A DNA stretch of 29,652 bases from Blastocatellia bacterium (GTDB lineage Bacteria; Acidobacteriota; Blastocatellia; UBA7656): the NCBI GenBank assembly GCA_963765495.1, contig CAVXWP010000011.1, positions 1 to 29,652 on the forward strand. The letters run 5' to 3'. Below the pieces are notes generated by a model. The model saw only the letters and a program-made list of their open reading frames with translations. It ran no database searches and was not told the origin of the DNA. Below are positions 5,717 through 29,600 of this stretch, piece after piece. How positions within the stretch are numbered: the first letter of the stretch is position 1; each line of letters begins with the position of its first letter. Both the position numbers and the translations under genes were made by a program.

Positions 5717-5885
5717 GCGTGATGCGTGATGCGTGACCTTAAAGGCAGTCTCGTTTTAACGAGGAACTCAGTTCCTCGGCCCCGGAGGGGTCGAAGTAAG
5801 GTAGCCAGTGGCAAGCCCAAGGCGCATCCATTGCGCAACATCAATGGGTAATTCCAAATCTCACGCATCACGCTTCACGCATCAC
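5717..5885. repeat. Inverted heptamer-repeat cassette (GCGTGAT)x3 ... (TCACGCA)x3.5
   Basis: Arms 5717-5736 and 5861-5885 read directly; between convergent genes. Confidence 0.9.
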
Positions 5886-8335
5886 TATTCGTATCTGAGC
5901 GCGACCATCGGATCGACCCGCGTAGCTCGTCTTGCCGGGATCAAACAGGCGGCAATCGCGACGACGATCAGCACTGCCGGTACCACAATGAATGTCAGGG
6001 GATCGGTCGCGCTGACTTCAAACAGCAGGCTTGCCATAACGCGCGTCAGCAAAAAGGCTCCGGCCATGCCGACGCCCAGCCCCACTATCGCAAGCCTGAA
6101 CCCCTGGCCCACCACAAGCGACAATACATTTCCCCTCGTAGCGCCGAGCGCTACGCGAACTCCTATCTCCTGAGTGCGTTGCGCCACCGTATATGACATC
6201 ACACCGTAGATGCCTACGGCCGCGAGCAAAAGCGAGATGGCTGAAAACGTTCCAAGCAACAGTGAAAGAAAACGCGGCCTCACCATCGAATCCGCAACGA
6301 CATCGTTCATAGTACGCAGGTCATATATAGGCACGCTCGGGTCCAGTTCAGAAACCGCCGAACGTATGCTTGAGGCGACCGAACCGGGATTCCCCTCGGT
6401 TCGAACGACAAAGTTCATATCGTTGTCTACGCCGAATTCGACCCCCTGCGCCTGTAGGAGGTAGAGTTCGGGCCCAGCAGGTTTGTCTACGCCTGCGTTC
6501 TTTGTATCTTCGACAATCCCGACGACGGTAAACCAGATGGGAGGATCATTGAAACCCGGATTGATGCGCCGCCCGATGGGGCTATCCTGCCAGAACCGTC
6601 GAGCCATCGCCTGATTGATCACTGCGACCTTCTGCGCTCCCTCGGCGCCGTCGGTTCGTTCAAAGGTCCGACCATCAATTGTTCGAATGCCCATAGTCTT
6701 GAAGTAGTCTTCGCTTATGACATTCCAGTAATCCACATTTTCGGCGGGTTCGTCGGGCGATGTAGGCTTATAATCTTCAATATCGGTGTCATTGGCGTTT
6801 ATCGGTCTGAGCGGCGGCAACCCGCCTGCCTGTGCAGCGGCTTTTACGCCGGGAATCGCGGCCAGGCGCTGTTGCAAGTCTCTGGCAAACTGCACTCGCT
6901 CAGGAGACTTGTATTTTGTCCCGGGCAGTTCAAGGCTCATTGACATAACGGAATTTTGGTCGAATCCGAGTTCGACGTGTTGGAGTTTCCAGAAGGCGTG
7001 GATCATAAGCCCCGAGCCGATTATGGGAATCACGGCGAGCGCGATCTCGGCGATGACGAGAGCCTGTCTGAATCTGTGGCTTCCCCCTCCCGCCACTCTC
7101 TGCCCCGATGATCGCATCCAGATTGCCAGATCGCGATCACGCATCTGGAAAAGCGGCACGAGCGCAAAGAACAAAACCGAAAGCATAGAGATGCCGAGCG
7201 TGAAGGCCAGCACCGTTAGATCAATACTGATTTCGCCCGTGCGCGGTACGCTGTCGGGCGCTGCGGCCATAATAACCGTGAGTCCCACACGAGCAAGAAG
7301 GACGCCTGCCACAGTACCAAGCAGGACCAGAATCATCCCTTCGGCGAGAAACTGACGAAGCAGCCGCATGCGCCCCGCACCCAGGGCCAGCCGCATCGCA
7401 AATTCGCGTCGCCGGGATTCGGCTCTTGCAAGCAGCAGATTGGCGACGTTTACGCATGCGATCAGCAGCACAAAAGCGACCGCGCCCAGAAGCATTAAGA
7501 CAGCGGGACGCACCGTTGCCGTTACGTCTTCGTGCAGAGGGATCATCAAAACCGGGTGGAATTCGGGGTTCAATAAATGCTTTGCCCGGTGCTCGTTCTT
7601 CCACCCCTCCATCAGCGAAGCCATCTCGGCCCGCGCCTGATCGACGCTTGCATCAGGTTTGAGCCGCCCGACAACATTGAGGTAATGCCCTCCCCGGCTG
7701 CCGGGGTTTGCGGGGTCGAACTGAAAAGAGGCAACCACTTCAGCCGGATCATTGCTGCCCGGAGGAAAGACAAATGCCGGAGGCATCACGCCGATGACCG
7801 TATAGGGTTGAGAGTCGATTTGAATCTCTTTGCCGATTATATCGGTCTCTGCGCCAAAGGCGCGCCGCCAGAGCCCGTCCGAGATGATCGCCGTACGCGG
7901 CCCGCCCTTTATATCTTCTTCCGGCATGAAGTTACGTCCTCTGGCAATCGGCACGCCAAGCGTATCGATCAAACTCCGCGTAACCAGCGCGGCAGTGACC
8001 CGAAGCGGTTCGCCCGAAGTACCGATGTTTGCTCCGCCCATAGACCACGCGCCTATGCTCTCCCACGATTTGGCCTCGTTCTGGATATCCATGAACTCCG
8101 GCGCAGAGATCCAGAATTTCTTCAAATCCATTGTCGGGAATTCACTGTAAACGCGCACGAGTTTTCCCGGTTCGTGATAAGGCAACGGCCTGAGAAGCAC
8201 GGCATTGACTACGCTGAAGATAGCGGTGTTTGCGCCGATACCGAGCGCCAGCGTCAATACGGCGACCATAGTAAAACCGGGGTTCTTTGCCAGTATTCTG
8301 AATCCATATCGAAGGTCTTGCCAGAGACTGTCCAT
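5885..8335 (-). CDS. ADOP-type duplicated ABC permease (2x MacB_PCD/FtsX)
   Basis: Starts [13 protein letters not shown] with GGAGG RBS (8335 preferred over 8407); [30 protein letters not shown], ends DPMVALRYE. Confidence 0.93.
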
Positions 8336-8403
8336 ATTTCCTCCATTGATCAGTCGTGAGTTTCGAATTGCCGATAATAGTGCCGGAGTCGGCAACCACC
8401 CAT

Positions 8404-8455
8404 TCAAAACTCAAAACTCAAAACTCAAAACTCAAAACTCAAAACTCAAAACTCA
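8404..8455. repeat. Perfect heptamer tandem repeat (TCAAAAC)x7.4
   Basis: Counted directly; lies between the two ADOP genes, 7 nt after the upstream gene's stop. Confidence 0.97.
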
Positions 8456-8462
8456 CCCCTCC

Positions 8463-10895
8463 CTACTCATAGCGCAGTGCCACCATCGGGTCTACCCTGA
8501 TTGCCCGACGGGCCGGGATGAAACTGGCTACCAGAGCCACTCCTGCCAGAATCAGCGAAATCGCTATAAAGGTTACGGGGTCGGTTGCGCTGACGCCGTA
8601 CAGCAAATCCACCATCAGGCGAGTCAAAGCCAGTGCCGTTATCAATCCGATGCCGACCCCGCCTGCTGTAAGCAAGATGGCCTGTCCAACTACCAGTTTG
8701 AAGATGTCGCGGCTGGCAGCGCCCAAAGCCATTCGCACCCCGATCTCGTGCGTGCGTTGCGTGACTGAATAAGAGATCACACCGTATATGCCGACGGCTG
8801 CCAGCACAAGCGCGACCCCGGCAAAGATCATCAGCAACAGCATCGAGAATCGCCGCAACGAGATCGAATCCTTCATCAACTGCTCCATAGTCGAGATGTT
8901 AGAGACGGCCTGGTCAGGGTCAAGTGCGCGTATCTCGTTGCGGACCGCGCCGATAATGGTTTTCGGGTCGGCAGAGGCGCGCACGGCAAGCGTCATAACA
9001 GAGGTCGGAAACTGCGCTTCACCGAGGTAAATCTGCATGGGCGGTTTTTTATCCAGACCATATTGATTGACATCGCCCACGATGCCCGCAATCGTCCGCC
9101 ACGGCTGCGGGTTCTTCTCCGAGCCGGGGAATTTTATCCGCTTGCCAATCGGGTCCTGGTCGGGCCACAACTGATTGGCCATGGTTTCGTTGATAAGCAC
9201 GACCTGCGGGCCGTCCTGATTGTCCCGCCCGGTGAGTGCGCGGCCTCGCAAAACGGGGATCGACATCGTTTGCAGATAATCGGGCGTGACGATGTAGAGG
9301 TCTACGCTGATCTCTTCCCCGCGAGGTTTCGGAAAATCTTCGACCGCAAGCCCTCTGCCGTCGAAATTGCCGCTAAAGGGCAGAACGCTCGTCACACCAC
9401 ACGACTGGACGCCGGGCAGGGTCTTTATACGTTCAAGCATTCGGTCATAGAAAGCTACATAATCCTGCCTCTTTGGATACTTCGCGCTCGAAAGCATCAG
9501 GTTCATGGTCAAAAGGTTTTCAGAATTGAAACCCGGATTTACATCTCGCAACCTTAGAATGCTTTTGATGAGCAACCCCGCCGAGATTAGCAGCACGAGC
9601 GCCATCGCTACCTCGGATACGACCAGAATACTCCGCAGGCGATTTCGACTCGCTCCCGCACCCGAACTTCGACCGCCTTCCTTTAGCGATTCGTTCAAAT
9701 CAGGGCTTGAGACGTGAAAGGCCGGGGCAAGCCCGAATACGATGCCCGCAAGGATGGAGATCACAAACGTAAAAGCAAGCACTCGCGTATCTATACTCAC
9801 GCGCCCGAGCAGGGGAGAGACTTGCGCGCCGAGGACTTCGATCAGGCTGGTTCCCCACATAGCCAGGAGTATTCCTATCGCCCCGCCCATAAGACCGAGC
9901 AGAACGCTTTCGGTCAAAAACTGACGCACAAGGCGGAGGCGACCGGCTCCGAGCGCCGCCCTTATTGCGATCTCTTTCTGCCTCGCCGTAGAGCGCGCAA
10001 GCAACAGGTTTCCCACATTGGCGCAGGCAATCAGCAGTACAAAGCCGACCGCGCCCAGAAGCAGCAACAGAATCGGGCGCAGGCCTCCTACAGTATCTTC
10101 TGTCAGGGTAGTGAGCCGGACACCATATCCTGTGTTATGTTCGGGGTGTTGCTGCTCCAGACGACCGGCGATTATTGTCATCTCAGACTGTGCCTGCTTG
10201 AGTGTGACATCGGGTTTCAATCGGCCTATGGCCCTCAGATGCCGCCCGCTGCGCTGATCTTCGTCGTGCGCTTCGGCCACCGGACGGTAGTACTGAGCGT
10301 TGGCTTCGACGAGGTTTGCGGGCAGGGGGTGAAAGTCGGCGGACATGACTCCGACTATGGTGTAGGGGCGGCTGCCGAGCGAAACGGTCTTGCCTATTAT
10401 TTCGGGATCGCCTCCGAACCGGCTCTGCCACAAACCGTAGCCAAGCACGATCACGAAATCCTTACCATCTTCCTGATCTTCGGGCAAAAAGGTGCGGCCA
10501 AGTAAGGGTTCGCCTCTCATTATCCGAAAGAACCCGTCTCCGACCTGTATGGCGGGAATTCGTTCCGGCTCTCCGACGCCGGTCAATACCGGCTGCCAGT
10601 CTCCATAGGTGGTCAAATCTTCAAACACCGTATTCTGATGCCGCCAATCGTCCACATCCGTAGCAGAGACCTGATCCCGATGCTCATTTTCGGAAGGGCG
10701 GTCGCCCCACACAAGCACTATGCGGTCGGGGTTGTCGAAGGGCAGAGGTTTAAGGAGTATAGAGTTGACCACACTGAAGATCGCCGTATTTGCGCCTATG
10801 CCTAAAGCCAGCGAGATTATGGCTACAACAGTGAGGCCGGGCGTTTTCAGCAGCATCCTGATCCCGTAGCGCAGGTCTTGAAGGAGGATTCCCAT
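8463..10895 (-). CDS. ADOP-type duplicated ABC permease (2x MacB_PCD/FtsX)
   Basis: [40 protein letters not shown], ends DPMVALRYE; GGAG RBS. Confidence 0.95.
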
Positions 10896-10952
10896 TTAAT
10901 TATCTCCGGTTGCTTTTTGGCCTACGAATATCTGAGTCGGATTGTTTTACAG

Positions 10953-10967
10953 GAAAGAATCGTGCCA
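10953..10967 (-). promoter_or_regulatory. Putative sigma-54 promoter for the ADOP pair
   Basis: Minus strand TGGCAC-GATTC-TTTC: perfect -24 box, -12 box TTTC instead of TTGC, ~60 nt upstream of ATG. Confidence 0.55.
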
Positions 10968-11134: not shown

Positions 11135-11236
11135 AATAGGCCACGGATGACACGGATGCGACGGATTTTCGCGGATTGGCTCATACATGGTCTGATCCGC
11201 GTAGATCCGCCTGATCCGCGTCCGTCCCGGCCTATT
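11135..11236. repeat. Inverted nonamer-repeat cassette (CACGGATNN)n ... (ATCCGCNNN)n
   Basis: Left arm 11135-11176 has four CGGAT cores at 9-10 nt period, mirrored in 11195-11236; closed by AATAGGCC/GGCCTATT. Confidence 0.85.
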
Positions 11237-11382: not shown

Positions 11383-13317
11383 ATGGTTCAAGCCCATAAA
11401 AATAGATGTCTCAGCGCCCTGATCGTATTGTTGGCGCTTTCTCTGATGGGTCTCGCGCAGGCCCCCGCTCAAGACTCCGACAACGTGAGAGCGCGTTACA
11501 CCAAGTACGAATACAGTATTCCCATGCGCGACGGGATCAAACTTTTCACGGTCGTTTATGTCCCCAAGGACGGGTCCGAGCGTTACCCTTTTCTCTTAAC
11601 GCGCACGCCTTACAGCGTGGCTCCCTACGGAATTGATAATTATCGCACTTCGCTTGGCCCCTCTCCTGAGTTTGAAAAGGAAGGCTTTATATTTGTCTAT
11701 CAGGATGCTCGCGGGCGTTATATGTCGGAAGGCGAGTTTCAGCAGGTGCGCCCCTATCGGCCAAACAAGCGGGGGCCAAAGGATATTGATGAGAGCACCG
11801 ACACATACGATACAATCGAATGGCTGCTCAAAAACATCCCGAACAACAACGGGCGAGTCGGAATGGTCGGCATATCGCAGCCGGGGTTTCACGTCGCGGC
11901 CAGCATCATAGATTCGCATCCGGCGCTCAAATGCGCCTCGCCTCAAGCGCCGACCGCCGATTACTACATGGGGGACGACGTATATCACAACGGCGCGTTC
12001 ATGCTTGCGGCGAATTTCGGGTTTTATTCGAGCTTTCGCCCGCGTAAAGACGGCCCGCATCCGCCCGAAAGACAGGTGGGGTTCGATCCGGGCACGCCTG
12101 ACGGGTACGACTTTTTTCTAAATCTCGGCCCGCTTGCCGAAGCGAATCAGAGACTCTTTGGCGGCGAAGCCCGCTACTGGCAAGAGATCATAGACCATCC
12201 CAACTATGACGAGTTCTGGCAGCAGCGTTCGCTTTGGAAGTTTATGAACAATGTGAAATGCGCCGTTCTCAACGTAGGCGGGTGGTACGATGCCGAAGAC
12301 CCGGCAGGCCCGTTTCACATCTATCGCTCGATAGAAAAGAACGACCCCGGCACGGTCAACATGCTTGTCATGGGACCGTGGCGACACGGCGGATGGGCGC
12401 GCGGCCCCGGAGATAAACTTGGCAATCTCAATTTTGCCGTCAAGACGGGGGAATATTTCAGAGAGCAGATTCAGTTCCCCTTCTTCATGCATTATCTGAA
12501 GGACAAGCCCGCCGACCTGCCCGAAGCCTATATGTATCTGACCGGCATCAATGAGTGGCGACGGCTGGCCGACTGGCCCCCGAAGGATACAAAGCCGCTC
12601 ACGCTCTACTTTCACGCAGGCGAAAGTTTAAAGACGGCGCCTCCTGCCGAAAGCGATCCAAACGCATTTGATGAATACATCAGCGACCCGAATCGCCCCG
12701 TGCCTTATCTGGGCTACGTCGTGCCTGATATGACATCCGACTATGCGACTGAAGATCAGCGATTCGCCTCCGAACGGCCCGATGTGCTGGTTTATGAAAG
12801 CGAGCCGCTTGAGCAGGACCTGATCGTAGCCGGTCCCGTCAAGGTCAATCTGAATGTGTCAACGACGGGGACGGATTCGGATTTTGTGGTAAAACTGGTT
12901 GATGTTTATCCGGGTAATTATCCCACGCCCCGACCGGCGGAAGGACAGCCTGTACCGTCGAACGCGGTGAGAATGGGCGGGTACGAACAGCTTGTGCGCG
13001 GCGAGCCGTTTCGCGGCAAATTCCGTAACAGCTTTGAAAAGCCGGAACCTTTTATACCGGGCAAGGCAGCTGCAATCGCCTTCGAGATGCCCGATGTCTA
13101 TCACGCCTTTCGCAAGGGGCACAGAATAATGGTTCAGGTGCAGAGTTCATGGTTTCCGCTGGTTGATCGAAATCCGCAGAAATTCATGAACATCCCAAAG
13201 GCCGGACAAGCAGATTTTCAGAAAGCTACCGAGCGAATCTTTCGCTCTGCTAAACTCCCGTCTTCTGTGACCCTGCTTGTCGAAGGTACACCCGTGGAGA
13301 TCACAGGAAGCAGATGA
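11383..13317 (+). CDS. CocE/NonD family serine hydrolase (alpha-amino-acid ester hydrolase-like), secreted
   Basis: Signal peptide; IPMRDG, RTPY, QDARGRYMSEG, nucleophile elbow GISQPG, GWYDAED, GPWRHGGW, C-terminal QSSWFPLVDRNPQ. Confidence 0.93.
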   Translation: MVQAHKNRCLSALIVLLALSLMGLAQAPAQDSDNVRARYTKYEYSIPMRDGIKLFTVVYVPKDGSERYPFLLTRTPYSVAPYGIDNYRTSLGPSPEFEKEGFIFVYQDARGRYMSEGEFQQVRPYRPNKRGPKDIDESTDTYDTIEWLLKNIPNNNGRVGMVGISQPGFHVAASIIDSHPALKCASPQAPTADYYMGDDVYHNGAFMLAANFGFYSSFRPRKDGPHPPERQVGFDPGTPDGYDFFLNLGPLAEANQRLFGGEARYWQEIIDHPNYDEFWQQRSLWKFMNNVKCAVLNVGGWYDAEDPAGPFHIYRSIEKNDPGTVNMLVMGPWRHGGWARGPGDKLGNLNFAVKTGEYFREQIQFPFFMHYLKDKPADLPEAYMYLTGINEWRRLADWPPKDTKPLTLYFHAGESLKTAPPAESDPNAFDEYISDPNRPVPYLGYVVPDMTSDYATEDQRFASERPDVLVYESEPLEQDLIVAGPVKVNLNVSTTGTDSDFVVKLVDVYPGNYPTPRPAEGQPVPSNAVRMGGYEQLVRGEPFRGKFRNSFEKPEPFIPGKAAAIAFEMPDVYHAFRKGHRIMVQVQSSWFPLVDRNPQKFMNIPKAGQADFQKATERIFRSAKLPSSVTLLVEGTPVEITGSR

Positions 13318-13366
13318 GCGATGGCTTTTTAAGGACTCAAAATCAAAACCCAAGGAGACTCGCAAG

Positions 13367-14167
13367 ATGCGAACAATTACTATCACTCGCGTTTTTTTAA
13401 CGTTGGGGATTTTCTTTGCAGTTGCCCACAATGCATTTGTAGCTTCGACAGGACCGGGCTCTCAGCAATCCCCGCAAGACTGGAAGATTCACGACATGGA
13501 TCGTCCGCAGCCCAAAGTAATCACCCCCGGCAAGCCGTGCGCCGAGCCTGCCATCCCGCCTTCGGATGCCGTGGTCCTGTTCGGCGGCAAGGATTTATCC
13601 GAATGGCGAAACGCCTCGGGCGAAGCGGCGAAATGGAAGGTTGAGAAGGGCTACTTTGAGGTAGTCAAAGGAACGGGGGCCATCTCGACGGCTAAAGGCT
13701 TTGGCGATTGCCAGCTTCACGTGGAGTGGAGCGCGCCTGTTCCGGCAGTGGGCGAAAGCCAGGAACGCGGAAACAGCGGCATCTTTTTGATGGGGCTGTA
13801 TGAAGTTCAGGTGCTCGATTCATATCAAAACAAGACCTATCCCGATGGGCAGGCTTCGGCCGTTTACGGACAATATCCGCCCCTTGTAAACGCAACGCGG
13901 CCACCGGGGCAGTGGCAAACTTACGATATAATTTTCCATCGCCCGCGATTTGATGCGGACGGAAAAGTCACTCACCCCGCTCGCGTTACAGTCTTGCATA
14001 ACGGCGTCCTTGTTCAAGACAACGTAGAGTTGACCGGGCCGACGGCGCACAAACAACGCCCGCCGTATCAAAAGCATGCCGACAAGCTGCCGCTGTCATT
14101 GCAAGATCACGGCAACCCGGTTCGCTATCGAAACATCTGGCTGCGCGAGTTGTCCGAAGGTCAGTAA
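13367..14167 (+). CDS. DUF1080 (3-keto-disaccharide hydrolase-like) protein, secreted
   Basis: AAGGAG RBS before ATG 13367; PPSDAVVLF, LHVEW, GNSG, YEVQVLDS, WQTYDI, LQDHGNPVRYRNIW. Confidence 0.92.
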   Translation: MRTITITRVFLTLGIFFAVAHNAFVASTGPGSQQSPQDWKIHDMDRPQPKVITPGKPCAEPAIPPSDAVVLFGGKDLSEWRNASGEAAKWKVEKGYFEVVKGTGAISTAKGFGDCQLHVEWSAPVPAVGESQERGNSGIFLMGLYEVQVLDSYQNKTYPDGQASAVYGQYPPLVNATRPPGQWQTYDIIFHRPRFDADGKVTHPARVTVLHNGVLVQDNVELTGPTAHKQRPPYQKHADKLPLSLQDHGNPVRYRNIWLRELSEGQ

Positions 14168-14242: not shown

Positions 14243-14288
14243 ACATTTTTCCGGCGTGGCGGGCCTGACGCAATCAAAAATAATCCAA

Positions 14289-15512
14289 ATGAAAAATAGA
14301 ACAGAGTACCTCATTCTCGCCTTATCCATTTTCGTGATGGCCTGTGGGGCGACAGACGCTCGCGCGCAATTCGTCTCGGTCAAAGGGAAACAATTCATAG
14401 AACCAGACGGCAGGCCGCTCCTGCTGAGAGGCATCAATCTGGGCAACTGGCTCTTGCCGGAGGGCTACATGTTCAAGTTCGAATCGGCAAACTCTCCGCG
14501 ATTGATCCACACGGTAATCAATCAACTGGTTGGCGAGGACGATGCGTACAAGTTCTGGCGGTTTCACCGCGACACATACATCACCAAAGATGACATTCAT
14601 TTCATAAAGAGCGCCGGGTTCAACTCCGTCCGCATACCCTTCAGTTATCGCCTGTTTGTGACCGAAGCCCGCCCGCGACAATTCGAAGGCGAGGGCTACG
14701 GGCTCTTAGATAAAGCTATCAAGTGGTGCAAGGAAGAGAATCTCTACGTCATTCTGGACATGCACGCGGCGCCCGGGGGGCAGACCGGCGACAACATCGA
14801 CGATAGCTTTGGCTACCCTTTTCTCTTTGAGAGCCCGGAAAGCCAGCATCTGACAATCGAGTTATGGAAGGAGCTTGCCCGCAGGTATAAAGATGAGCCG
14901 ATCATCATCGGCTATGATCTGTTGAATGAGCCGATACCTCATTTCTTTGACGCGGATTATTTCAATCCCAAACTCGAACCGCTTTACAGGCGCATCGTGG
15001 CAGGGATCAGACAGGTAGATCGCAACCACATTATCTTCTTAGGCGGCGCGCAGTGGGACAGCAATTTCAAGGTTTTCGGCCCTCCTTTTGATGATAAACT
15101 CGCCTATACCTTTCATAAATACTGGACCGAAGCGACCCAGGCCGTGATTCAGGAGTATGTAGATTTCAGCAACAAATATAACGTACCGCTGTGGATGGGC
15201 GAGTCGGGCGAAAACACAAATGAGTGGATCGAGACGTTCAGAAAACTGCTTGAAAAGAACGATATAGGCTGGTGTTTCTGGCCTTATAAGAAACTGGATT
15301 CGCCCTCGTGCATAGCCTCGATCAAACCGCCCGAGGGGTGGGACGCGATCATCTCATTTGCCAACCATCCGAGGATCACTTTTGAAGATATCAGAAAGCA
15401 ACGCCCTCCCAAAGACGTAATAAATCGCGCGATACTCGGGTATCTCGACAACATCAAATTCAAGAACTGCAAAATCAACGAGGACTATCTGAAGGCGCTT
15501 GGCCTGAAATAG
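14289..15512 (+). CDS. Glycoside hydrolase family 5 protein, exported
   Basis: GINLGNWL.PEGYM, GFNSVRIP, ILDMHAAPGGQ, acid/base LLNEP, FHKY, nucleophile MGESGE; hydrophobic N-terminus. Confidence 0.93.
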   Translation: MKNRTEYLILALSIFVMACGATDARAQFVSVKGKQFIEPDGRPLLLRGINLGNWLLPEGYMFKFESANSPRLIHTVINQLVGEDDAYKFWRFHRDTYITKDDIHFIKSAGFNSVRIPFSYRLFVTEARPRQFEGEGYGLLDKAIKWCKEENLYVILDMHAAPGGQTGDNIDDSFGYPFLFESPESQHLTIELWKELARRYKDEPIIIGYDLLNEPIPHFFDADYFNPKLEPLYRRIVAGIRQVDRNHIIFLGGAQWDSNFKVFGPPFDDKLAYTFHKYWTEATQAVIQEYVDFSNKYNVPLWMGESGENTNEWIETFRKLLEKNDIGWCFWPYKKLDSPSCIASIKPPEGWDAIISFANHPRITFEDIRKQRPPKDVINRAILGYLDNIKFKNCKINEDYLKALGLK

Positions 15513-15658
15513 GGGGCCAGGGGCCAGGGGCCGGGGGCCGGTGACCTGCGCCCTGGAGGGGTCGATAAAAAGAAATCTTCAAATCACCGATCACCGACCA
15601 CTGACCAACGATCTCTGCCCCCTGATCACCGGCCCCCGGCCCCCGGCCCCTGGCCCCC
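15512..15658. repeat. Inverted heptamer-repeat cassette (GGGGCCR)x4 ... (YGGCCCC)x4
   Basis: 33-nt arms 15512-15544 and 15626-15658 complementary at 32/33; internal (TCACCGA)-type heptamers. Confidence 0.93.
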
Positions 15659-15688
15659 GATAGCAAAACCGGCTTCGGTTTTGCTATC
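15659..15688. terminator. 13-bp hairpin, possible terminator, overlapping a possible extended -10 (TGcTATCAT, 15682-15690)
   Basis: GATAGCAAAACCG-GCTT-CGGTTTTGCTATC; no clear U-tract after the stem. Confidence 0.5.
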
Positions 15689-18788: not shown

Positions 18789-18861
18789 GACAGGATTAAC
18801 AGGATTCAAGAAGATCAAGAAAAATCTTGTTGAATCTTTCAGAAATCCTGTCAATCCTGTC
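18789..18861. repeat. Inverted nonamer-repeat cassette (RACAGGATT)x2 ... (AATCCTGTC)x2
   Basis: Arms 18789-18806 and 18844-18861 plus degenerate inner units; right arm overlaps the kinase stop codon. Confidence 0.85.
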
Positions 18862-21265
18862 TACCGGTTCTTCGGGTTAGGCTCGATATGACCGCGGCCA
18901 GTTCTGCGGGCTCAACAGGTTTTACTACGTGAGATTGAAAGCCCGCCGACAGGGCAAGCAACCGATCTTCTGTTCTGGCATGCGCGGTGAGCGCGATGGC
19001 CGGAAACCATCCGTTGGTTTCAACCTCCCCGGCTCTGATTCTGCGAATGAGCGAATAGCCGTCCTCTTCGGGCATCTCGATATCGCTCACCAGTATATCC
19101 GGCTTTACAACTTGAAGGGCCGAAACTGCTTCGGCGGCAGACGACGCAGTCGTCACACTGGCTCCAAGCTCTCCGAGCATAGTTGTAAGCAGATCCCGCG
19201 CATCCGCATCATCGTCGACGATCAGAATGCTCAGTCCATCAAGAGAAGCGGGAGGCGTAAGAGCGAAACCACGATGGCCTATCGCTTTGCTCACCCGCTC
19301 CGCGCCGATGCGAATCGAAGACATATCGCGTGTTATAGATACGGGAAGCTCGACCTTAAACGTAGCGCCTGTTCCCCTGCCTCCGCTATAGACCGAGACA
19401 GTGCCTCCGTGCAGTTCCACAAGATGCCGCACGATGGCAAGCCCAAGCCCAAGCCCGCCATGCGATCTGGTGAGCGTGCTGTCAGCCTGACGGAACCGAT
19501 CAAATACATAAGGCAGAAAGTCGGGATTTATGCCTTCGCCCGTATCGCTCACCGTGATCTCGATATGAGAATTGACGCTCTTGAGCGAGATCTGTATACG
19601 CCCGCCTTTCGGTGTAAATTTGACGGCATTTGAAAGCAGGTTCCACATTACCTGCTGAAGCCTGTCCGGGTCGCCGAGTACCGGGCCTGCTTCGCTGTCG
19701 AGCATCGTCTGAAGCCTGATCGCTTTGGCGTCGGAGGCGGGGCGAATCGCCTCGACCGCGTCTTCGATGACAGAGGAAATCTCTACCGTCTGCACGTCGA
19801 GGCGAAGTTTGCCCGTTATTATGCGCGAGACATCCAGAATATCTTCGATGATCTGCGCCTGCGCCCTCGCGTTTCTCTCTATGGTTTCGAGGGCGCGGCT
19901 GGAGACATCGGCGCTCAGACGCGATGTCCTCAACATCTTCGCCCATCCGAGTATGGCATTTAAGGGCGTGCGCAGTTCGTGCGAAACGGTCGCCAGAAAT
20001 TCGTCTTTGAGACGGTTGGCCTGTTGTAGCTCGGCTTCGATCTGCTTCAGGTTTGTTATGTCCTGAAACATGATAATCGCGCTCGAGGGATGGCCGTGCA
20101 TCGCGGGCACGTTTTCGCTGAAAAGTATGAGCGACTTCTTGCCGGCGGGCGTGTGCCAGTCCATCTCGAACCCTTCGAGTCGTTCGCCTCTTGAGGCGCG
20201 GACTCCGGGCATCTCCTCATCGGGTATGCGATTGCCTTTTTCGTCGGTGCAATAATAGACGGTGTGATACTCTTCGGCCGGTTTGCCCTTTGGAAATTCG
20301 CCTCCGGCCATCTCATCCGCGCCCCGGTTTGCGAAAGTCACTATCGCCGTGTGGGGTTCGACAAGCAGCATGGGCGTGGGCATGAGATCAAGCACATTTT
20401 CGAGCCATTTCTGCTGGTTTTGAAGGTCTTCTTCCGCCCGCTTGCGCTCGATTGCCGCGCTCAGGACGTTTGCGACCGATTGAAGAAAGTTGATGTCATC
20501 TTTTGTAAAAAAGCCTTTTCGCAAAGCGTGAGCGCCCAGCACTCCAAACGGGCGCTTCGATCCGCGAATGATCACTACCATGCTCGAACGTATCCTGTAC
20601 TCGATCAGGTCGGGGTGTACTCGAAAACGTGTCTCCTTCGCCAGATTATTTGCGATCATCGACTCGCCCGATTGCAGGGTGTAGCCCACCATGGAATCTT
20701 TCGCCGCAATGATCCTTTTTCCATCCGGGCTCTCTTTCCATCCCGTTCCCGAGAGTACAAGGAACGAATCTTCTTCCGCCATGTATTCCAGAATCGAGCA
20801 ATGGCGAACGTCGAGCGTTTCAGTCACCAGCCGTGTTGTCTCTGTCATAAGATCGGGCAGGCGGGTGCCTTCAAGCGCAAGCTGACCCAGCCGGGCAATC
20901 GCCGCCTGCTGTAGCGCGCGTGTCTTGCGAGCATCGCTTGCTCGCCGCAGCCAGCCTGCCAGGAGGGCGATCAGGGTCAGTATGATGAGCCTCGGCAGAT
21001 CCGAAGGGTAGAGCCGTAAGGGAAAGAAGGGTTGGGATTCGCCTACAAATAACCTCGCGAGAAACGACCAGAGAACCGCCGACATGATGCCCGGCCCCAG
21101 CCCTCCATACCAGGCGCTCAATATCACCGCTACGAGAATAAGAATCGTCGGATTCAGCGTGAAGACGCGACGAATGAGAAGCTCTAAAATCAAGGTCGCC
21201 GCGACTATGACTATGGCAAGACCGTAACGGAATACATGTGATCGAAGGAGTTTTTTCATAATCAA
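18851..21265 (-). CDS. Hybrid sensor histidine kinase (membrane DUF4118-like input, GAF, PAS, HisKA, HATPase, REC); start TTG 21265 or ATG 21259
   Basis: TM N-terminus SAWYGGLGPG; GAF ending FLQSVANVL; SHELRTPL; NLLSNAVKF; GLGLGL; REC IVDDD/SDIEMP. Confidence 0.95.
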   Translation of the reverse strand: MIMKKLLRSHVFRYGLAIVIVAATLILELLIRRVFTLNPTILILVAVILSAWYGGLGPGIMSAVLWSFLARLFVGESQPFFPLRLYPSDLPRLIILTLIALLAGWLRRASDARKTRALQQAAIARLGQLALEGTRLPDLMTETTRLVTETLDVRHCSILEYMAEEDSFLVLSGTGWKESPDGKRIIAAKDSMVGYTLQSGESMIANNLAKETRFRVHPDLIEYRIRSSMVVIIRGSKRPFGVLGAHALRKGFFTKDDINFLQSVANVLSAAIERKRAEEDLQNQQKWLENVLDLMPTPMLLVEPHTAIVTFANRGADEMAGGEFPKGKPAEEYHTVYYCTDEKGNRIPDEEMPGVRASRGERLEGFEMDWHTPAGKKSLILFSENVPAMHGHPSSAIIMFQDITNLKQIEAELQQANRLKDEFLATVSHELRTPLNAILGWAKMLRTSRLSADVSSRALETIERNARAQAQIIEDILDVSRIITGKLRLDVQTVEISSVIEDAVEAIRPASDAKAIRLQTMLDSEAGPVLGDPDRLQQVMWNLLSNAVKFTPKGGRIQISLKSVNSHIEITVSDTGEGINPDFLPYVFDRFRQADSTLTRSHGGLGLGLAIVRHLVELHGGTVSVYSGGRGTGATFKVELPVSITRDMSSIRIGAERVSKAIGHRGFALTPPASLDGLSILIVDDDADARDLLTTMLGELGASVTTASSAAEAVSALQVVKPDILVSDIEMPEEDGYSLIRRIRAGEVETNGWFPAIALTAHARTEDRLLALSAGFQSHVVKPVEPAELAAVISSLTRRTGRQD

Positions 21266-21325: not shown

Positions 21326-21393
21326 GCCACAGAGGCACCGCAGGCACAGAGATTTTTATAATCTTTTCTCTGTGCCTGCGGTGTCTCTGTGGC
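21326..21393. repeat. 27-bp inverted repeat built from nonamers (CACAGAGGC-like)
   Basis: GCCACAGAGGCACCGCAGGCACAGAGA / TCTCTGTGCCTGCGGTGTCTCTGTGGC, 26/27 complementary, 14-nt AT-rich loop. Confidence 0.93.
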
Positions 21394-24562: not shown

Positions 24563-24642
24563 CTTATACGGGTCTAAGGTTGTTCCTCACAGATCCACTG
24601 CCCGCAATCATAGATAATCGCACTGTATAGAGCAAGCCGGGG

Positions 24643-24830
24643 CGGGGGCCAGGGGTCAGGGGGCCGGGGCCGGGGCCGGAAATTCTTATCTTCCAGTTCT
24701 ACCCATCTGGGATTTGATATTTGCTATTTGCGATGCGGAGTCGGTAAACATTCAAGCTACTCTAGAATGCACGCAATCACCGATCACCGACTATTGTTAC
24801 CGGCCCCTGGCCCCTGGCCCCCGGCCCCCG
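24643..24830. repeat. Second (GGGGCCR)n ... (YGGCCCC)n inverted heptamer cassette
   Basis: Arms ~24643-24679 and 24800-24830; internal AATCACCGATCACCGAC identical to 15582-15598. Confidence 0.9.
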
Positions 24831-24831
24831 A

Positions 24832-24868
24832 TGTACGATACTGAACAGTGGCTGTACACAACTGAACG
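24832..24868 (+). promoter_or_regulatory. Tandem putative enhancer-binding-protein sites
   Basis: TGTAC-N3-ACTGAAC at 24832 and 24853 (21-bp period), ~70-105 bp upstream of the sigma-54 motif. Confidence 0.65.
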
Positions 24869-24903
24869 GCTGTGAATCTCTTTGCGTTTTTTTTGTAGTT
24901 TGA

Positions 24904-24916
24904 AATCAATCAGTTA
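24904..24916 (+). promoter_or_regulatory. IHF binding site
   Basis: AATCAATCAGTTA matches WATCAANNNNTTR exactly, with upstream T-tract, between enhancer and promoter. Confidence 0.7.
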
Positions 24917-24935
24917 AGAGCTTCAGGTACTCTTT

Positions 24936-24950
24936 CGGCCTCACTATTGC
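24936..24950 (+). promoter_or_regulatory. Sigma-54 (-24/-12) promoter of efflux operon
   Basis: CGGCCT-CACTA-TTGC: GG-N10-GC spacing with TTGC, 25 nt before ATG. Confidence 0.7.
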
Positions 24951-24974
24951 CAAAGCTCGTTTGAGGATTGATCT

Positions 24975-26219: not shown

Positions 26220-26974
26220 AGGCTTCGGAGAGGAAATATTTGATGGAGACCGTTACAGCCAAATCCGAAAAGAGCATCGGCGGCACCGCCGCGGTCGAGC
26301 AGAAGGCGATGATCCGGCTTGAAAATATCGAGAAGGTCTATCGCACGGATCGCATAGAAACCGTCGCGCTCACAAACGTCAACCTGACAGTTCGCGAAGG
26401 CGAGTTTATATCGATTATGGGGCCGTCGGGGTCGGGCAAGAGCACTCTGCTCAACGTCATAGGATTGCTCGACGTGCCGACGAGCGGGGAGGTCAGCCTG
26501 AACGGGAAGCCTATAACTTCTTTTAGCGACAGGTATCTGGCCAGAGCCAGAAACGAAGATGTAGGCTTCATCTTTCAATCATTCCACCTCATCAACGATT
26601 TGAGCGTCGTCGATAATGTCGAAATCCCCCTGCTCTATCGAAAGATGGCGGGCTCTTTGAGGCGAAAGATGGCGCTCAAGGCGCTGGATCGCGTGGGATT
26701 GAATTCGCGTGTCCACCACTTTCCGGGGCAGCTATCGGGCGGGCAGCAACAGCGCGTAGCGATAGCCCGCGCCATTGTCGGAAACCCTCGCGTGCTGCTG
26801 GCCGACGAGCCTACGGGTAACCTCGACAGTCAGATGGGCGACGAGATCATGGACATACTCAAAGACCTGGGCCACGAAGAAAAGACAACCGTGGTGATGG
26901 TGACGCACGACCCGCGCCAGGCCGAAAAGACCGAGCGCATAATCAGGCTCTTCGACGGCCGACAGGTGAATTGA
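26216..26974 (+). CDS. ABC transporter ATP-binding protein (MacB/LolD type); alternative start 26243
   Basis: Walker [10 protein letters not shown], signature LSGGQQQR, Walker [16 protein letters not shown]. Confidence 0.96.
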
Positions 26975-26987
26975 GGAGTGATGCGTG

Positions 26988-28225
26988 ATGCTAAAAAACT
27001 ATATCAAGATCGCCGTAAAGGTATTTGCCCGGAGAAAGTTCTTTACCTTTATCAGTCTGTTTGCGATCAGTTTTACACTGATAGTTCTGATGGTGGTCAC
27101 GGCTTTTCTGGATCATATTTTCGGGCCGCTGCCGCCTGAGACCAAAACTGACCGCACGCTGGGCGTTTTTCAGCTGATGCTGAGAGGTCCGAACGCCACA
27201 TCCAACGGCCCCGCAGGCTATGGTTTTCTGGACCGCTTCGCGCGCAATCTGCCAAATGTAGAAAAGGTCTCTATCTTCACAACGCCCGGACAGGCTTACT
27301 CCTACAAGGATGGCGAGAAGATAAAGTCCTTCTTCAAACGCACGGATGGAGAGTTCTGGCAGATCATGGATTTCAACTTTCTTGAAGGCGGTCCCTTTAC
27401 TCCCGATGATGAACAGAATGCCAATTTTGTCGCCGTCATCAACGAAGCCACTAGAAAGAAATTCTTTAACAACGAACCGGCCGTGGGCCGGACCATCGAG
27501 GTAGACGGGCAACGATTCCGCGTCGTAGGCGTGGTGGCAAATGTGCCTTTCTTCAGACTGACCCCTTTTTCCGACATCTGGGTTCCAATAAGCACGTCTA
27601 AAACGGATGGCTATCGCACACAGCTTCAGGGCAATTTCATGGCTGTCTTGCTTGCCCGCTCGGCGGCGGACTTTCCCCTGATAAAAGAAGAGTTCAAGTC
27701 TCGACTCTCTCAGGTCGATCTTTCGGACCATAAAGAATTCGAGATGGCTATCGCAGATACGGAAACGCTTTTTGAATTCGCATCCAGAATGTTCAGCCCG
27801 CACCAGGATGAAAATCATCCCGCGAGTTTTTTGATTGCGATCCTCGGACTGATGGTCCTGTTTATGATGCTGCCTACGGTGAACCTGATCAACATCAACG
27901 TCAGCCGGATAATGGAGCGCGCAAGCGAGATCGGCGTGCGCAAGGCGTTCGGGGCTTCGTCGTGGACGCTGGTCGGACAGTTCGTAGTCGAAAACGTACT
28001 GCTCACGCTCGTGGGCGGAGTGATCGGATTCCTTGGCGCATACTTTGCCCTGCAAGCCATCACAAGCGCGGGATTGATTCCTTATGCCGAATTTCAATTG
28101 AACTATAGAATCTTTCTCTACGGCTTTATCCTTGCGATCTTCTTTGGTCTGTTCAGCGGAGTTTACCCAGCGTGGAAGATGTCGCGGCTCAACCCGGTCG
28201 AAGCCCTAAAGGAGGCACACGATGA
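26988..28225 (+). CDS. MacB/FtsX-type ABC permease; probable 1-nt deletion near the stop (as sequenced reads through to 28379)
   Basis: ERASEIGVRKAFGA, GVYPAWKMSRLNPVEALK; one extra A at 28208-28210 gives ALKGGTR* ending in an ATGA overlap with the next gene. Confidence 0.85.
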
Positions 28226-29463
28226 TTCGCCATATCTTCAAGATGGTCTGGAACCGCAAGCGGATCAACTTCCTTATCACCGTAGAAATTTTCTTTTCAT
28301 TCCTGGTTCTGTTTGCGGTCATGCTGTTTGCCGTACACTACATAAACAATTATCGCCACACTCTCGGCTTCGATTATGAAGACGTGTATAACGTGAGTAT
28401 CGAAAGAGGAGACAATCGCGGAAGAGTTTTTGCCGGAGGGGAAGACTCTACCGCCTTGTCTAACGAGATGACCCTGGGATATGGTAGGGGAGTTGCGCCA
28501 GTTTGACGAGGTAGAAGAAGTAGCGGGCATACAGATGTCGCCCTTTTCACAATCAAGCGGCAATTCCGATTACAACATCGGCGGGCGCAGCATCAGGTAT
28601 GAATTTGATGAAGCGACCGACACTTTCGCCGATGTCATGAAGTTGAATGTGGCGCGCGGCAGATGGTTTGGCAAAGAAGATGACGGCTCGAATGATGAGT
28701 TTCTTGGTTGCTCATCAACGAGCGATTCCAGCTGCTGACCTGTTCGGCTGACGAAGACCCCGACAGGCCGGTATCATCAAGGCCGACGCGGACCCGCGAG
28801 GCAACCCCATAGAAAAGCAGGACCGGGTCATCGGGGTCATATCCGATTTCCGCAAAGATGGGCGAGTTCGGAGCACTTGAAAACTTCGTTTTCCGGCGCA
28901 AAAACTTAAACGATCCAAAGAGTCGACCTGTCGAGAACCTTCTGATAAGAGTTCGCCCGGGCACATCGGCTGCCTTTGAGGAAAAGTTGATGGCTCGAAT
29001 GCAGACCGTGGCCCGCGACTGGTCATTTGAGATCGAGCCGCTCGCCGTTATGCGAGACACCATGCATCAGATATATCTCGCGCCGATAATCGCCGCGGGG
29101 CTAGTCGCGGGGTTTCTGATGATAATGGTGGGGCTCGGGCTTACGGGCGTGCTCTGGCAAAATGTCACGCAGAGGACAAAAGAGATCGGGCTCAGGCGAG
29201 CCAAAGGCGCGACCGCCGGAAAGATTTACACTCAGATTCTGGGCGAGCTTTTGATCATCACATCCTTCGGACTGGTCGTCGGAACCTTGATCGTAGTCCA
29301 GTTCCCGCTCCTCGATCTGATCGGCTATATAAGCAGCGGAGTATACATTTCGAGCCTCCTGATTTCGCTCTTTCTGATATATCTGTTGACGCTCGTTTGC
29401 GGGTTGTATCCAAGCTGGCTTGCGACTAAAGTACGACCTGCCGAAGCATTGCATTACGAATGA
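28222..29463 (+). pseudogene. Second MacB/FtsX-type ABC permease with multiple frameshifts (probably sequencing errors)
   Basis: Pieces in changing frames: MIRHIFKMVWNRK, GRWF, LINERF, AADLFG, DEDP, RVIGVISDFRKD, GEFG...RTKEIGLRRAKGA...PAEALHYE. Confidence 0.85.
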
Positions 29464-29600
29464 GCAGTAGGCAGCAGGCAGTAGGCAGTAGGCAGTTACG
29501 GAGTTGGGTACCACCTCTTCATATGCATACCCCATGCTCTCTTTAGCAGTAGTCATCAATTCAGTATCAACTGCCTACTGCCTACTGCCTACTGCTCATT
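29459..29600. repeat. Inverted heptamer-repeat cassette (GCAGTAG)n ... (CTACTGC)n
   Basis: Arms 29459-29497 and 29569-29600; left arm contains the permease TGA and one extra unit. Confidence 0.93.

Follow-up and report, generated by a model that had tools for sequence, protein, structure and literature searches.

Along one stretch of the genome of a soil acidobacterium, intergenic palindromes built from tandem 7-mer or 9-mer repeats recur, which raises the question of whether they arose on the spot, serve the host as RNA structures or belong to a mobile element. The stretch (hereafter the window) is contig C11, 29,652 nt long. Seven inverted cassettes and a one-armed TCAAAAC array had been listed in the original prediction, and all eight are present where it had placed them:

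5717..5885, no strand assigned: heptamer-armed hairpin, unit GCGTGAT, arms at 5717-5736 and 5861-5885
8404..8455, minus strand: one-armed TCAAAAC array of 7.4 units, read as GAGTTTT in the direction of the flanking genes
11135..11236, no strand assigned: gene-less 9-mer cassette in a divergent gap, CACGGATNN arms closed by AATAGGCC...GGCCTATT
15512..15659, no strand assigned: heptamer-armed hairpin, unit GGGGCCR, arms at 15513-15539 and 15629-15659
18789..18861, no strand assigned: gene-less 9-mer cassette, unit RACAGGATT, filling a convergent gap
21326..21393, no strand assigned: gene-less 9-mer cassette, unit CACAGAGGC, with a perfect 27-bp stem
24636..24830, no strand assigned: heptamer-armed hairpin in a divergent gap, unit GGGGCCR, arms at 24636-24679 and 24800-24830
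29459..29600, no strand assigned: heptamer-armed hairpin, unit GCAGTAG, arms at 29464-29496 and 29570-29595

The inverted cassettes have one architecture in common, as had been proposed: all seven consist of inverted unit arrays and fold as long hairpins, with z-scores of -7.50 (5717), -6.32 (11135), -8.05 (15512), -7.25 (18789), -13.35 (21326), -4.69 (24636) and -8.42 (29459) and 0 of 200 shuffles folding as well in each case. At 5717, 15512, 24636 and 29459 the long stem is formed by reverse-complementary arrays of 7-nt units; folding was also computed for the one-armed array at 8404..8455 and gave no hairpin. No gene lies inside any window cassette, the cores being 14-125 nt long (14-16-nt loops in the 9-mer cassettes). 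The cassette at 15512..15659 begins right at the TAG stop of a GH5 gene (14256..15512), the left arm at 29459..29600 directly follows the TGA stop of an ORF (28858..29463), and the right arms at 5717..5885 and 18789..18861 adjoin the TAG stops of minus-strand genes (a permease gene, 5885..8407, and gene 18851..21265, respectively). The one-armed array starts 7 nt past the TAG stop of gene 8463..10895 and reaches the ATG of the next permease gene; its stop-GGAGGGG-array junction is common to four permease paralogues, some of which may be gene duplicates. Both GGGGCCR hairpins contain inner arrays, ATCACCG at 15583-15613 in one and two ATCACCG units (24776-24790) plus 2.9 of ATTTGCT in the other, and the 124-nt core at 5717..5885 is atypical and composite.

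A genome-wide scan of the 7.30-Mb, 98%-complete assembly bore out the suspected bias towards periods 7 and 9. TRF returned 1641 period-7 arrays over the whole genome against 126 in an order-3 Markov simulation (13-fold), and 654 period-9 arrays against 163. The expected excess of inverted pairs was found as well: same-unit arrays lie inverted within 3 kb of each other in 634 cases (589 of period 7; median core 48 nt), compared with 0 in the simulation. Units had been described as locus-specific, a claim that has to be given up, since about 50 canonical units serve 518 clustered loci and six of them make up 355 loci. Members of a unit family have conserved cores (clusters comprising 111, 50 and 44 loci; 44-74 nt in the repeated families), with 250 of the 518 loci left as singletons under the short-BLAST rule used for clustering. 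The window palindromes are copies of several such dispersed families, which together amount to roughly 650-700 copies in this genome. The largest family, NCGTGAT, has about 230 loci, and no cognate gene for it or for the GCAGTAG family was found in the assembly.

Every window cassette belongs to a multi-copy family, and four (11135, 18789, 21326 and 29459) are repeated end to end at 31-96 other places each with 70-99% identity, so that the earlier view that no single MITE family explains them is not supported. Counting places that cover at least 80% of the length, 11135..11236 has 96 others (identity 77-91%), 18789..18861 has 39, 21326..21393 has 42 (identity up to 95.6%, outer flanks conserved) and 29459..29600, with its conserved 74-nt core, has 31, one of them an assembly duplicate on contig C7. 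For 5717..5885, about 27 places repeat the arms and two core modules, and a full-length sibling sought in the genome was not found. The sequence of the 8404..8455 array recurs at 59 places, and the arms of 15512..15659 at 87; its core is unrepeated, and that of 24636..24830 is likewise unique.

Could each structure have originated locally, through replication slippage of a chance heptamer, with hairpins formed by chance or by local inversion-duplication? Heptamer arrays are prone to slippage, and in the 23S rRNA intervening sequence (IVS, helix 45) of Coxiella burnetii, which has a 28-bp stem with GACAGAT heptamers, their number varies among strains according to the passages on that element (PMC4990558). 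Moreover, GGGGCCR and TTTTGAG loci have arms in common and unrelated cores, a pattern that is unexplained by whole-element copying, and the orthologous gap upstream of the VWA gene holds arrays with other units in 2 of 8 other genera. A local origin is nevertheless hard to square with inverted pairs that the simulation never produced, with a small unit vocabulary common to many loci and with units conserved alongside their proteins across phyla (see below), and we regard it as very improbable. For the conserved-core families it is contradicted by the conserved cores and the whole-element copies at up to 96 places. Simple slippage, which the original prediction had already judged insufficient, is excluded on the same grounds: the cassettes are dispersed copy families, not local slippage products.

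Full family-1 elements occur in this genome alone among the 31 searched, and the sequence comparison points to a lineage-specific burst. Neither filled/empty polymorphism nor an insertion event was seen in the comparison with the nearest genomes available, which belong to other genera, and unit number did not change between two overlapping assembly versions of the window.

What the window cassettes are relatives of is suggested by the genes found between such arms elsewhere. Throughout the genome only two kinds were found there: four-helix-bundle genes of the '23S rRNA intervening-sequence protein' family (TIGR02436/PF05635), whose cassettes have arms of 7-nt units, and GxxExxY genes (TIGR04256; PD-(D/E)XK-like protein), with arms of 8-10-nt units. 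Inverted heptamer arrays enclose all 4 four-helix-bundle genes, and inverted 9-mer arrays enclose the single GxxExxY gene, on contig C8, in agreement with what had been put forward for other genomes in the original prediction. Its remark that the window has neither gene was also right, the four-helix-bundle genes being on other contigs, and no GxxExxY gene is found between the arms of the window 9-mer cassettes. Both arms of the contig C8 cassette align with 11135-11236, whose own arms are short arrays of C[AG]C[AG]GA-type units with a conserved terminal closing word, as in GxxExxY cassettes. Gene-less and gene-bearing cassettes of this genome thus have arms in common, and the suggested empty forms of a small cassette have their match in the window copies. 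Since these have no TIGR02436/PF05635 gene in the loop, they are gene-less relatives of the IVS-type element and not full members. In the literature searched, a link between the gene-bearing and gene-less forms was not found.

Relatives in the same class repeat the picture. Four-helix-bundle loci have strict inverted arrays on their flanks in 21 of 30 and in 20 of 27 cases; at GxxExxY loci the arrays are 8-10-mers, with strict pairs at 11 of 30 (one being a spurious 5-mer), and units resembling those of 21326 and 18789 flank GxxExxY genes. The pairing of 7-mers with four-helix-bundle genes and of 9-mers with GxxExxY genes holds in other phyla too. Around relatives of the AGGGATG-cassette protein with 57-73% identity, spread over many phyla, strict inverted arms are present at 50 of the 75 complete loci. 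Units within 1 mismatch of the reference occur at 24 of 50 of these kin loci versus 1 of 34 in a diverse sample (Fisher p 5e-6, with kin loci that are not independent). Arms of the same AATAGAAC-ACGGAT type surround relatives of the GxxExxY protein in Bacteroidota, Ignavibacteria and other groups, and at least one flanking array is present at 62 of 73 such loci, periods 9 and 10 being dominant. Of 17 pattern matches for the NCGTGAT unit, 6 have it on the flanks of a TIGR02436 gene, all in Lysobacter-type genomes. The unit sequence thus travels with the protein subfamily across phyla, a correspondence that co-inheritance alone can produce.

The left-arm unit has more G than C in 44 of 50 loci and in 28 of 34, and polarity is fixed, the G-rich unit standing on the 5' arm whichever strand is read. 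There is a preferred arm length of about 4 units (~28 nt): the modal class, 3.5-4.5 units, holds 419 of 958 arms in the genome and 77 of the 180 arms of gene-bearing cassettes. The lengths of the left and the right arm show no correlation (r 0.10), and mismatches are frequent at the variable position of the unit.

The position of the cassettes relative to genes invites an explanation in terms of the host, namely that they are selected RNA structures (3'-end stabilisers, bidirectional terminators or insulators, or RNase III sites after stop codons) and owe their spread and conservation to function instead of selfish copying. The arm edge lies a median of 1 nt from the stop codon (IQR -3 to +6), and this anchoring persists in long spacers: among tandem gaps, 21 of 39 with 120-250 nt of other spacer and 19 of 31 with more than 250 nt still have the arm within 10 nt of the stop. 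In 24 of 35 permease ORFs ending in native ALRYE, an array begins between -4 and +15 nt relative to the stop. Occupancy falls from 13.8% of convergent gaps to 8.6% of tandem and 6.7% of divergent ones. In convergent gaps the cassette takes the place of nearly all other DNA (residual median 3 nt versus 92 nt in 755 cassette-free gaps; 66% versus 12% with at most 10 nt left). The majority of abundant units supply stop codons in all three frames, and RNase III cuts the analogous Coxiella IVS within its stem, as the passages on its processing report (PMC4990558). Strand and terminator features, however, speak against this reading. None of the cassettes between 9700 and 29652 is among the 26 terminator-like sites of that interval, a number at chance level (22 +/- 5.7), no U-tract follows the stems, and 18789-family flanks have a T-run on the left (5') and an A-run on the right (3'), the reverse of a terminator. 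Folding energy has no strand bias (sense versus antisense 160 versus 153 of 313 tandem loci, p 0.45), nor have G-U pairs (889 versus 863). Divergent gaps hold 58 loci and ORFs 19, and the same arms enclose selfish-looking genes. Taken together, we consider host selection unlikely as the source of these elements.

Known non-autonomous elements, either REP/REPIN sequences moved by a RAYT (Y1) enzyme or MITEs that depend on a classical transposase gene at another place in the genome, are a quite improbable source. There are resemblances: like REP, BIME and REPIN sequences, the cassettes are high-copy extragenic palindromes at gene ends that form hairpins and occur without target duplications, and many E. 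coli REPs are located close to stop codons. Bacterial MITEs likewise combine many short non-coding copies, inverted ends, a family-specific interior and rare longer gene-bearing copies with the same ends; many copies, inverted ends and a conserved interior were found here together, except at the GGGGCCR loci, where cores differ. REPs, however, are single palindromes, and the arms here are tandem 7-9-nt units; nor are the associated genes transposases, unlike in REP/RAYT systems. Both Y1-transposase (PF01797) matches in the genome lack heptamer arms, one being IS200-like with its own small hairpins and the other RAYT-like and flanked by its own GC-rich REP, so that neither is a RAYT gene flanked by cassette repeats. 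Unlike MITEs, the 18789 family, on which the target-duplication test was made, has no duplication of k>=3 in 32 usable copies (of 39), and at k=2 there are 6 versus 4.4 expected. Further differences are ends made of variable-length repeat arrays and families that share arms only. The long forms encode only four-helix-bundle or GxxExxY proteins, and no autonomous transposase-encoding partner with the same ends, nor any mobilising enzyme for the cassettes, was found in the genome. Rfam gave no match at gathering score; its hits were microRNA-hairpin look-alikes below threshold, the strongest at 38.5 bits where the gathering score is 82.

The best explanation, to which we give a probability of about 0.6, is that the cassettes are gene-less, MITE-like members of an IVS-like palindromic class whose gene-bearing forms carry a four-helix-bundle or GxxExxY gene. 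Arms would be putative arrays of recognition sites for the cassette-encoded protein, which would make the gene-less copies non-autonomous elements or additional sites that it serves in trans. Spread may follow a copy-and-paste route without target duplication, with landing at, or survival only at, gene 3' ends. Co-transcribed with a host gene, the ~28-bp stem would be an RNase III substrate by analogy with the heptamer-armed Coxiella IVS, and such cutting would make insertion between cistrons tolerable. We know of no mobilising enzyme, nor of any catalytic activity on record for the four-helix-bundle family. It is possible, if doubtful, that four-helix-bundle and GxxExxY proteins read tandem 7-nt and 9-nt words in a modular way and with their arms form a new transposase-less class of mobile cassette that inserts at the ends of coding regions, with gene-less copies (several hundred here, about 1% of the DNA) served in trans, and that both the intervening sequences of 23S rRNA and the long-noted bacterial heptamer excess derive from this class.

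Cyanobacterial STRRs are described as direct arrays and are not known to form inverted pairs around a core or to be linked to a gene. Like the elements here, STRRs and the heptanucleotide repeats that bacteria in general have in excess (Mrazek et al. 2007, as summarised in PMC4679880) are dispersed, mostly intergenic and well above expectation. Precedents in print are the Coxiella IVS and the Xanthomonas heptamer pairs. In the sections of PMC4990558 that deal with it, the Coxiella IVS resembles the window class in its long terminal stem (~28 bp) with tandem heptamers in the arm, and the loop gene of ORF-bearing IVSs belongs to the same four-helix-bundle ('S23p') family as the heptamer gene cassettes. 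Unlike IVSs of 23S rRNA, window copies sit between protein-coding genes, gene-less and in hundreds, and RNase III processing is a feature described for the Coxiella IVS. GGGAATC heptamer arrays form convergent inverted pairs in two Xanthomonas genomes (70 and 75 cases; Rehm et al. 2015, PMC4692102); in the passages on these pairs they are, as here, mostly intergenic, rarer in divergent gaps and closer to the ORF on their 5' side (mean 28 nt) than to the one downstream. Those passages treat arrays of one unit as G-quadruplex-forming simple repeats and do not describe the conserved cores, gene-cassette link and multiple unit families seen here (PMC4692102). The GGGGCCR gene cassette of this genome encodes a protein that matches a solved structure, the Xanthomonas S23p pentamer 2gsc (E 3e-26).

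All features of the original prediction, seven inverted cassettes (two inverted unit arrays, the arms, around a core) and a one-armed array, were found in the window where it had placed them. Four of the cassettes are whole-element copies, matching elsewhere in the genome over at least 80% of their length by BLAST:

5717-5885: cassette with heptamer arms, unit GCGTGAT
8404-8455: one-armed array of TCAAAAC / GAGTTTT units
11135-11236: cassette with 9-mer arms; copies at 96 other places, 77-91% identity
15512-15659: cassette with heptamer arms, unit GGGGCCR
18789-18861: cassette with 9-mer arms; copies at 39 other places
21326-21393: cassette with 9-mer arms; copies at 42 other places
24636-24830: cassette with heptamer arms, unit GGGGCCR
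29459-29600: cassette with heptamer arms, unit GCAGTAG; copies at 31 other places

Hairpin folding gave z from -4.7 to -13.4 for the seven inverted cassettes, none of 200 shuffles equalling any of them, and the TCAAAAC array, which has no partner arm, does not fold. In two of the 9-mer families, conserved and partly palindromic flanks extend past the predicted boundaries. Both GGGGCCR cassettes and 5717-5885 have arms and some short modules in common with other loci, their cores being unique. Within the 5717 core, a 45-nt module is found again at 5-19 places; the 11-mer GGAGGGGTCGA, common to the cores of two unrelated cassettes (5736-5860 and 15541-15628), has 11 genomic occurrences where about 3.5 are expected.

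The assembly (7.30 Mb in 17 contigs, 54% G+C, the window being the entire contig C11), apparently that of a soil acidobacterium, is rich in duplicated MacB/FtsX-type permeases and Oar-like TonB receptors. Tandem Repeats Finder (TRF) returned 1641 period-7, 654 period-9 and 296 period-14 arrays, against 126, 163 and 33 in an order-3 Markov simulation of the genome. Pairing each array with one of reverse-complementary unit at most 3 kb away gave 634 inverted pairs, 589 of them of period 7, along with 121 direct pairs; the simulation gave none of either kind, and the spacing of array pairs peaks at 25-75 nt. Clustering left 518 loci (479 of period 7, 23 of period 8 and 16 of period 9), a few copies being counted twice because C11 overlaps the ends of contigs C10 and C7. 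The TRF thresholds censor arms below about 2.2 units and most 9-mer arms; most 9-mer elements are missed since their arms are only 2-3 imperfect units. Together, the 507 loci whose core does not exceed 200 nt occupy 55.3 kb (0.76% of the genome), and the three 9-mer families come on top of this.

The units had been thought locus-specific, a view that the genome does not bear out: about 50 canonical units serve all 518 loci.

Canonical units and the loci that carry them
NCGTGAT variants: 119+62+23+13 loci
AGGGATG: 56 loci
GCAGTAG: 46 loci
GGGGCCR: 37+11 loci
TTTTGAG: 35 loci
GATTTTR variants: about 28 loci

Conserved cores accompany the arms in a 111-locus cluster (NCGTGAT arms, core of ~44 nt), a 50-locus cluster (AGGGATG arms, ~70 nt) and a 44-locus cluster (GCAGTAG or TTTTGAG arms, ~74 nt); 250 loci are singletons under a short-BLAST clustering rule that is insensitive. 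Full copies of the NCGTGAT family (82-90% identity) occur only in this genome among the 31 searched, and NCGTGAT arrays without the core are found in four other genera of the same taxonomic family, a distribution that looks like a lineage-specific burst.

Similar arms had been said to flank four-helix-bundle and GxxExxY genes in other genomes, and the link holds here as well: each of the four TIGR02436 genes (PF05635, the four-helix-bundle 'S23p' protein of 23S rRNA intervening sequences, IVS) lies between inverted heptamer arrays, and the single TIGR04256 (GxxExxY) gene between inverted 9-mer arrays. A looser PF05635 search of the genome returned no credible further four-helix-bundle genes. 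Scanning all wider inverted pairs in the genome revealed no other kind of cargo, most such pairs being adjacent cassettes that flank one ordinary gene. The units around the four TIGR02436 genes all differ (GGGGCCA, TTTTGAG, AGGGATG and GATTTTG). Between the GxxExxY cassette and window 11135-11236 both arms align and the loop alone differs; a gene-less core as the deletion product of a gene-bearing cassette was rejected, as the alignment is confined to the arms.

Both gene families are present in 45 of 61 genomes of the class searched. In the class, 21/30 and 20/27 sampled four-helix-bundle loci are flanked by strict inverted arrays (complementary consensus units, one mismatch at most), and nearly all of these have different units. 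The GxxExxY loci of the class carry 8-10-nt units of the types CACAGAGG, CACGAAGG and CACGGATG, which are also the unit types of the three 9-mer cassettes in the window; the TRF rule found pairs at 11/30 of them, one a spurious 5-mer, most others having a one-sided array. Two gene-bearing cassettes of this genome have coding limits that run into the repeat: the longest ORF of the four-helix-bundle gene in the AGGGATG cassette (contig C7, 193586-194034, locus L045) starts at an ATG within the left arm, and the ORF of the GGGGCCR cassette (contig C1, 724983-725426, locus L032) reaches its stop only beyond the right arm, which it translates into a tail ...PAPGPRPP.

The four four-helix-bundle paralogues share only 15-18% identity and their alignment has no conserved stretch, and loci of relatives were searched with single proteins. 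Relatives of the AGGGATG-cassette protein at 57-73% identity occur in Acidobacteriota, Chloroflexota, Verrucomicrobiota, Planctomycetota, Proteobacteria and others, with strict inverted heptamer arms at 50 of 75 complete loci (the set after removal of 5 short ones). Among these 50, the unit lies within one mismatch of AGGGATG at 24 and within two at 39, compared with 1/34 and 5/34 in a diverse class-level sample (Fisher p 5e-6 and 9e-9, values that overstate the case because the loci are kin). Likewise, GxxExxY relatives at 52-67% identity (Bacteroidota, Ignavibacteria, Chloroflexota and others) share with window 11135 both the closing word and ACGGAT-type units of 9-10 nt. For NCGTGAT, this genome holds about 230 gene-less loci and no gene; a pattern search for NCGTGAT-type arms 365-395 nt apart returned 17 loci elsewhere, 6 of which hold a TIGR02436 gene, all in Lysobacter-type genomes. 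The other unit that is an orphan here, GCAGTAG, has its counterpart in a related genus, where CAGTAGG arms flank a four-helix-bundle gene. Since the 7-mer stays recognisable while the protein diverges by 30-40%, sequence comparison suggests that this non-coding unit is under selection, most simply as the putative recognition site of the protein; co-inheritance alone could also produce the correspondence.

The cassettes follow rules of polarity and length. The G-rich version of the unit stands on the 5' arm of either strand in 44/50 and 28/34 gene-bearing cassettes, and the listed loci of the six main families in the genome show no exception. Arm length peaks at 3.5-4.5 units, a class that holds 419 of the 958 arms in the genome (median 4.1) and 77 of the 180 arms of gene-bearing cassettes (median 4.4); at about 28-31 nt, the preferred arm is as long as the Coxiella IVS stem. 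The length of a left arm does not correlate with that of its right partner (r 0.10). In NCGTGAT the variable position takes any of the four bases in either arm, and with one unit position free the stems contain periodic mismatches; in this family the variable base showed no asymmetry between 5' and 3' arms. No target duplication was found among the usable copies of the 18789 family. Elements nest within the loops of other elements, and composites (contig C9 at 271012 and several GCAGTAG loci on C1) hold a whole or half 9-mer cassette inside the loop of a heptamer-armed element.

On a gene map made by greedy selection of the longest ORFs with a minimum of 100 aa (5468 ORFs over 87% of the genome, a rough approximation), 320 loci fall in tandem, 120 in convergent and 58 in divergent gaps, 19 inside ORFs and one at a contig edge. 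Measured from the neighbouring gene's stop codon, the outer edge of an arm is at a median of 1 nt (IQR -3 to +6); where the neighbour is a downstream start, the median is 17-18 nt. Such anchoring does not reflect lack of room, because arms stay near the stop where other spacer is long: considering the 234 tandem gaps with non-negative residual (the remainder of the 320 being excluded), an arm lies within 10 nt of the stop in 21/39 gaps with 120-250 nt of other spacer and in 19/31 with more than 250 nt. Of 35 long permease ORFs with the native ALRYE ending, which include some gene duplicates and two that are one assembly duplicate, 24 have an array that starts -4 to +15 nt from the stop, with at least five different units. 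Many other ORFs terminate on a stop within the first units of the array; most of the abundant units contain TGA or TAG, and a period of 7 puts the stop in all three frames. For annotation, this means that many ORFs take their stop from the repeat and that false N-terminal extensions result. A single stop codon as target was rejected, as stops adjoining arms are of all three kinds with TAG mildly enriched (28% vs 20.5%, p 0.007). Unpaired stop-adjacent arrays have their G-rich strand in the sense of the gene in 136/149 cases, which follows from the polarity rule and stop anchoring and is not independent evidence. At window 8400-8470, a Shine-Dalgarno-like GGAGGGG precedes the 52-nt one-armed array; as the array runs up to the ATG, about 55 nt separate the motif from that start codon. 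Four permease paralogues have this junction in common. Liang, Rudd and Deutscher reportedly placed REPs near stop codons.

We consider the window cassettes to be gene-less members of an IVS-like cassette class, with a probability of roughly 0.6. Each arm may then be an array of about four putative sites for a cassette-encoded protein, as the unit-protein correspondence suggests. Gene-less forms possibly multiply as whole elements, in bursts; conserved interiors demonstrate whole-element multiplication for five families, which do not include the GGGGCCR loci. Their spread might use a route without duplication that ends at gene 3' ends, where the observed anchoring could come from targeting or from selection. 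By analogy with what the Coxiella IVS account (PMC4990558) says of RNase III, stems of ~28 bp in host transcripts would probably be cut by that enzyme. The main rival holds that the host retains cassettes for the action of their stems at mRNA 3' ends. Some host use is favoured by the convergent gaps, which cassettes fill: they leave a median residue of 3 nt, where convergent gaps free of cassettes have 92 nt; in divergent gaps the cassette adds to a normal-sized spacer (226 vs 215 nt). Strand-specific selection on the stems at the RNA level left no sign: the sense strand folds better than the antisense in 160 vs 153 of 313 cases (p 0.45), and G-U pairs do not differ (889 vs 863). Relative to gene direction, the cores show a weak orientation bias at most, with counts of 40 vs 24, 19 vs 13 and 20 vs 11, none significant singly and not poolable because 'sense' is arbitrary within each family.

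Other identities were rejected. Rfam searches at E<=1 returned only sub-threshold microRNA-like hairpin matches, and no cassette scored in an intrinsic terminator scan of window 9700-29652. A RAYT/IS200 link, with the cassettes as REPs of the RAYT-like gene of this genome, fails because that gene has a GC-rich REP of its own. This Y1 transposase gene (contig C17, 143994-144630) is flanked by its REP hairpins on both sides, and the same REP is found upstream of the VWA homologue in another genus (L005).

If the cassettes are indeed gene-less IVS-like elements, the heptamer excess, the 23S rRNA IVS and the four-helix-bundle proteins would be parts of one element class in this genome, at an extreme load. 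To our knowledge, the bacterial heptanucleotide excess, the origin of ORF-bearing 23S rRNA IVS and the function of the very large family of small four-helix-bundle proteins, relatives of the DGR accessory protein Avd, have gone unexplained for decades. It is predicted that each cassette protein binds its own unit array, that the stems are RNase III substrates and that gene-less copies depend on the cognate gene. The Coxiella IVS has a 28-bp stem, GACAGAT heptamers in strain-variable number, an S23p four-helix-bundle ORF and RNase III cutting, in an account of one rRNA element (PMC4990558). In Xanthomonas, convergent inverted GGGAATC pairs near the 5' neighbouring ORF are treated as quadruplex-forming simple repeats (Rehm et al. 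2015, PMC4692102), and heptamer excess is among the matters reviewed by MacGregor 2015 (PMC4679880). A full-text literature search, whose coverage leaves out most subscription journals, returned no publication tying the four-helix-bundle or GxxExxY families to repeat arms or gene-less copies. This analysis contributes a family structure for the gene-less copies, the association of 9-mer arms with GxxExxY in this genome, the tracking of units by protein across phyla, the polarity and length rules, and stop anchoring that is independent of room.

Filled and empty alleles were compared with relatives that are other genera, at about 70% nucleotide identity, and at one orthologous gap, that upstream of the VWA gene. 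Among eight other genera, an inverted heptamer pair built on a different unit occurs in one and two non-complementary arrays in another; the remaining six lack arrays. Apparent joints at 5736-5861 in low-depth contigs of one DNA run were rejected as alleles: they are further copies of the family, whose cores are different. Between the two assembly versions of the window, one arm carries a single SNP and the unit number is unchanged. Window 1-8937 and 16947-29652 duplicate the ends of contigs C10 (99.83% identity) and C7 (99.80%), so that about 21.6 kb of the window stands twice in the assembly, either as assembly redundancy or as a second haplotype bridging both. Compared with the C7 copy, window 28470-28860 has a cluster of single-base indels and substitutions that coincides with a MacB/FtsX permease split into ORFs 26985..28379 and 28858..29463, either a sequencing error or a real frameshift.

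At window 14168-14256, a perfect palindrome of ~22 bp that has no tandem units occupies the whole interval from gene 13277..14167 to gene 14256..15512. It belongs to a separate hairpin repeat family, the middle of the palindrome being present at about 8 places in the genome. Window 1-43 is the 3' part of a tRNA gene truncated by the contig end (Rfam tRNA, 28.9 bits, gathering score 29). A TTTGCTATCAT-like word, 10-25 nt ahead of the start codon (ATG) of the VWA-domain gene, is kept in all nine genera compared (window 15660-15700 and loci L002-L010); it probably serves as a -10 region, the leader then being very short. In the window this word makes up the 3' half of a small hairpin (15660-15687) that immediately follows the cassette.
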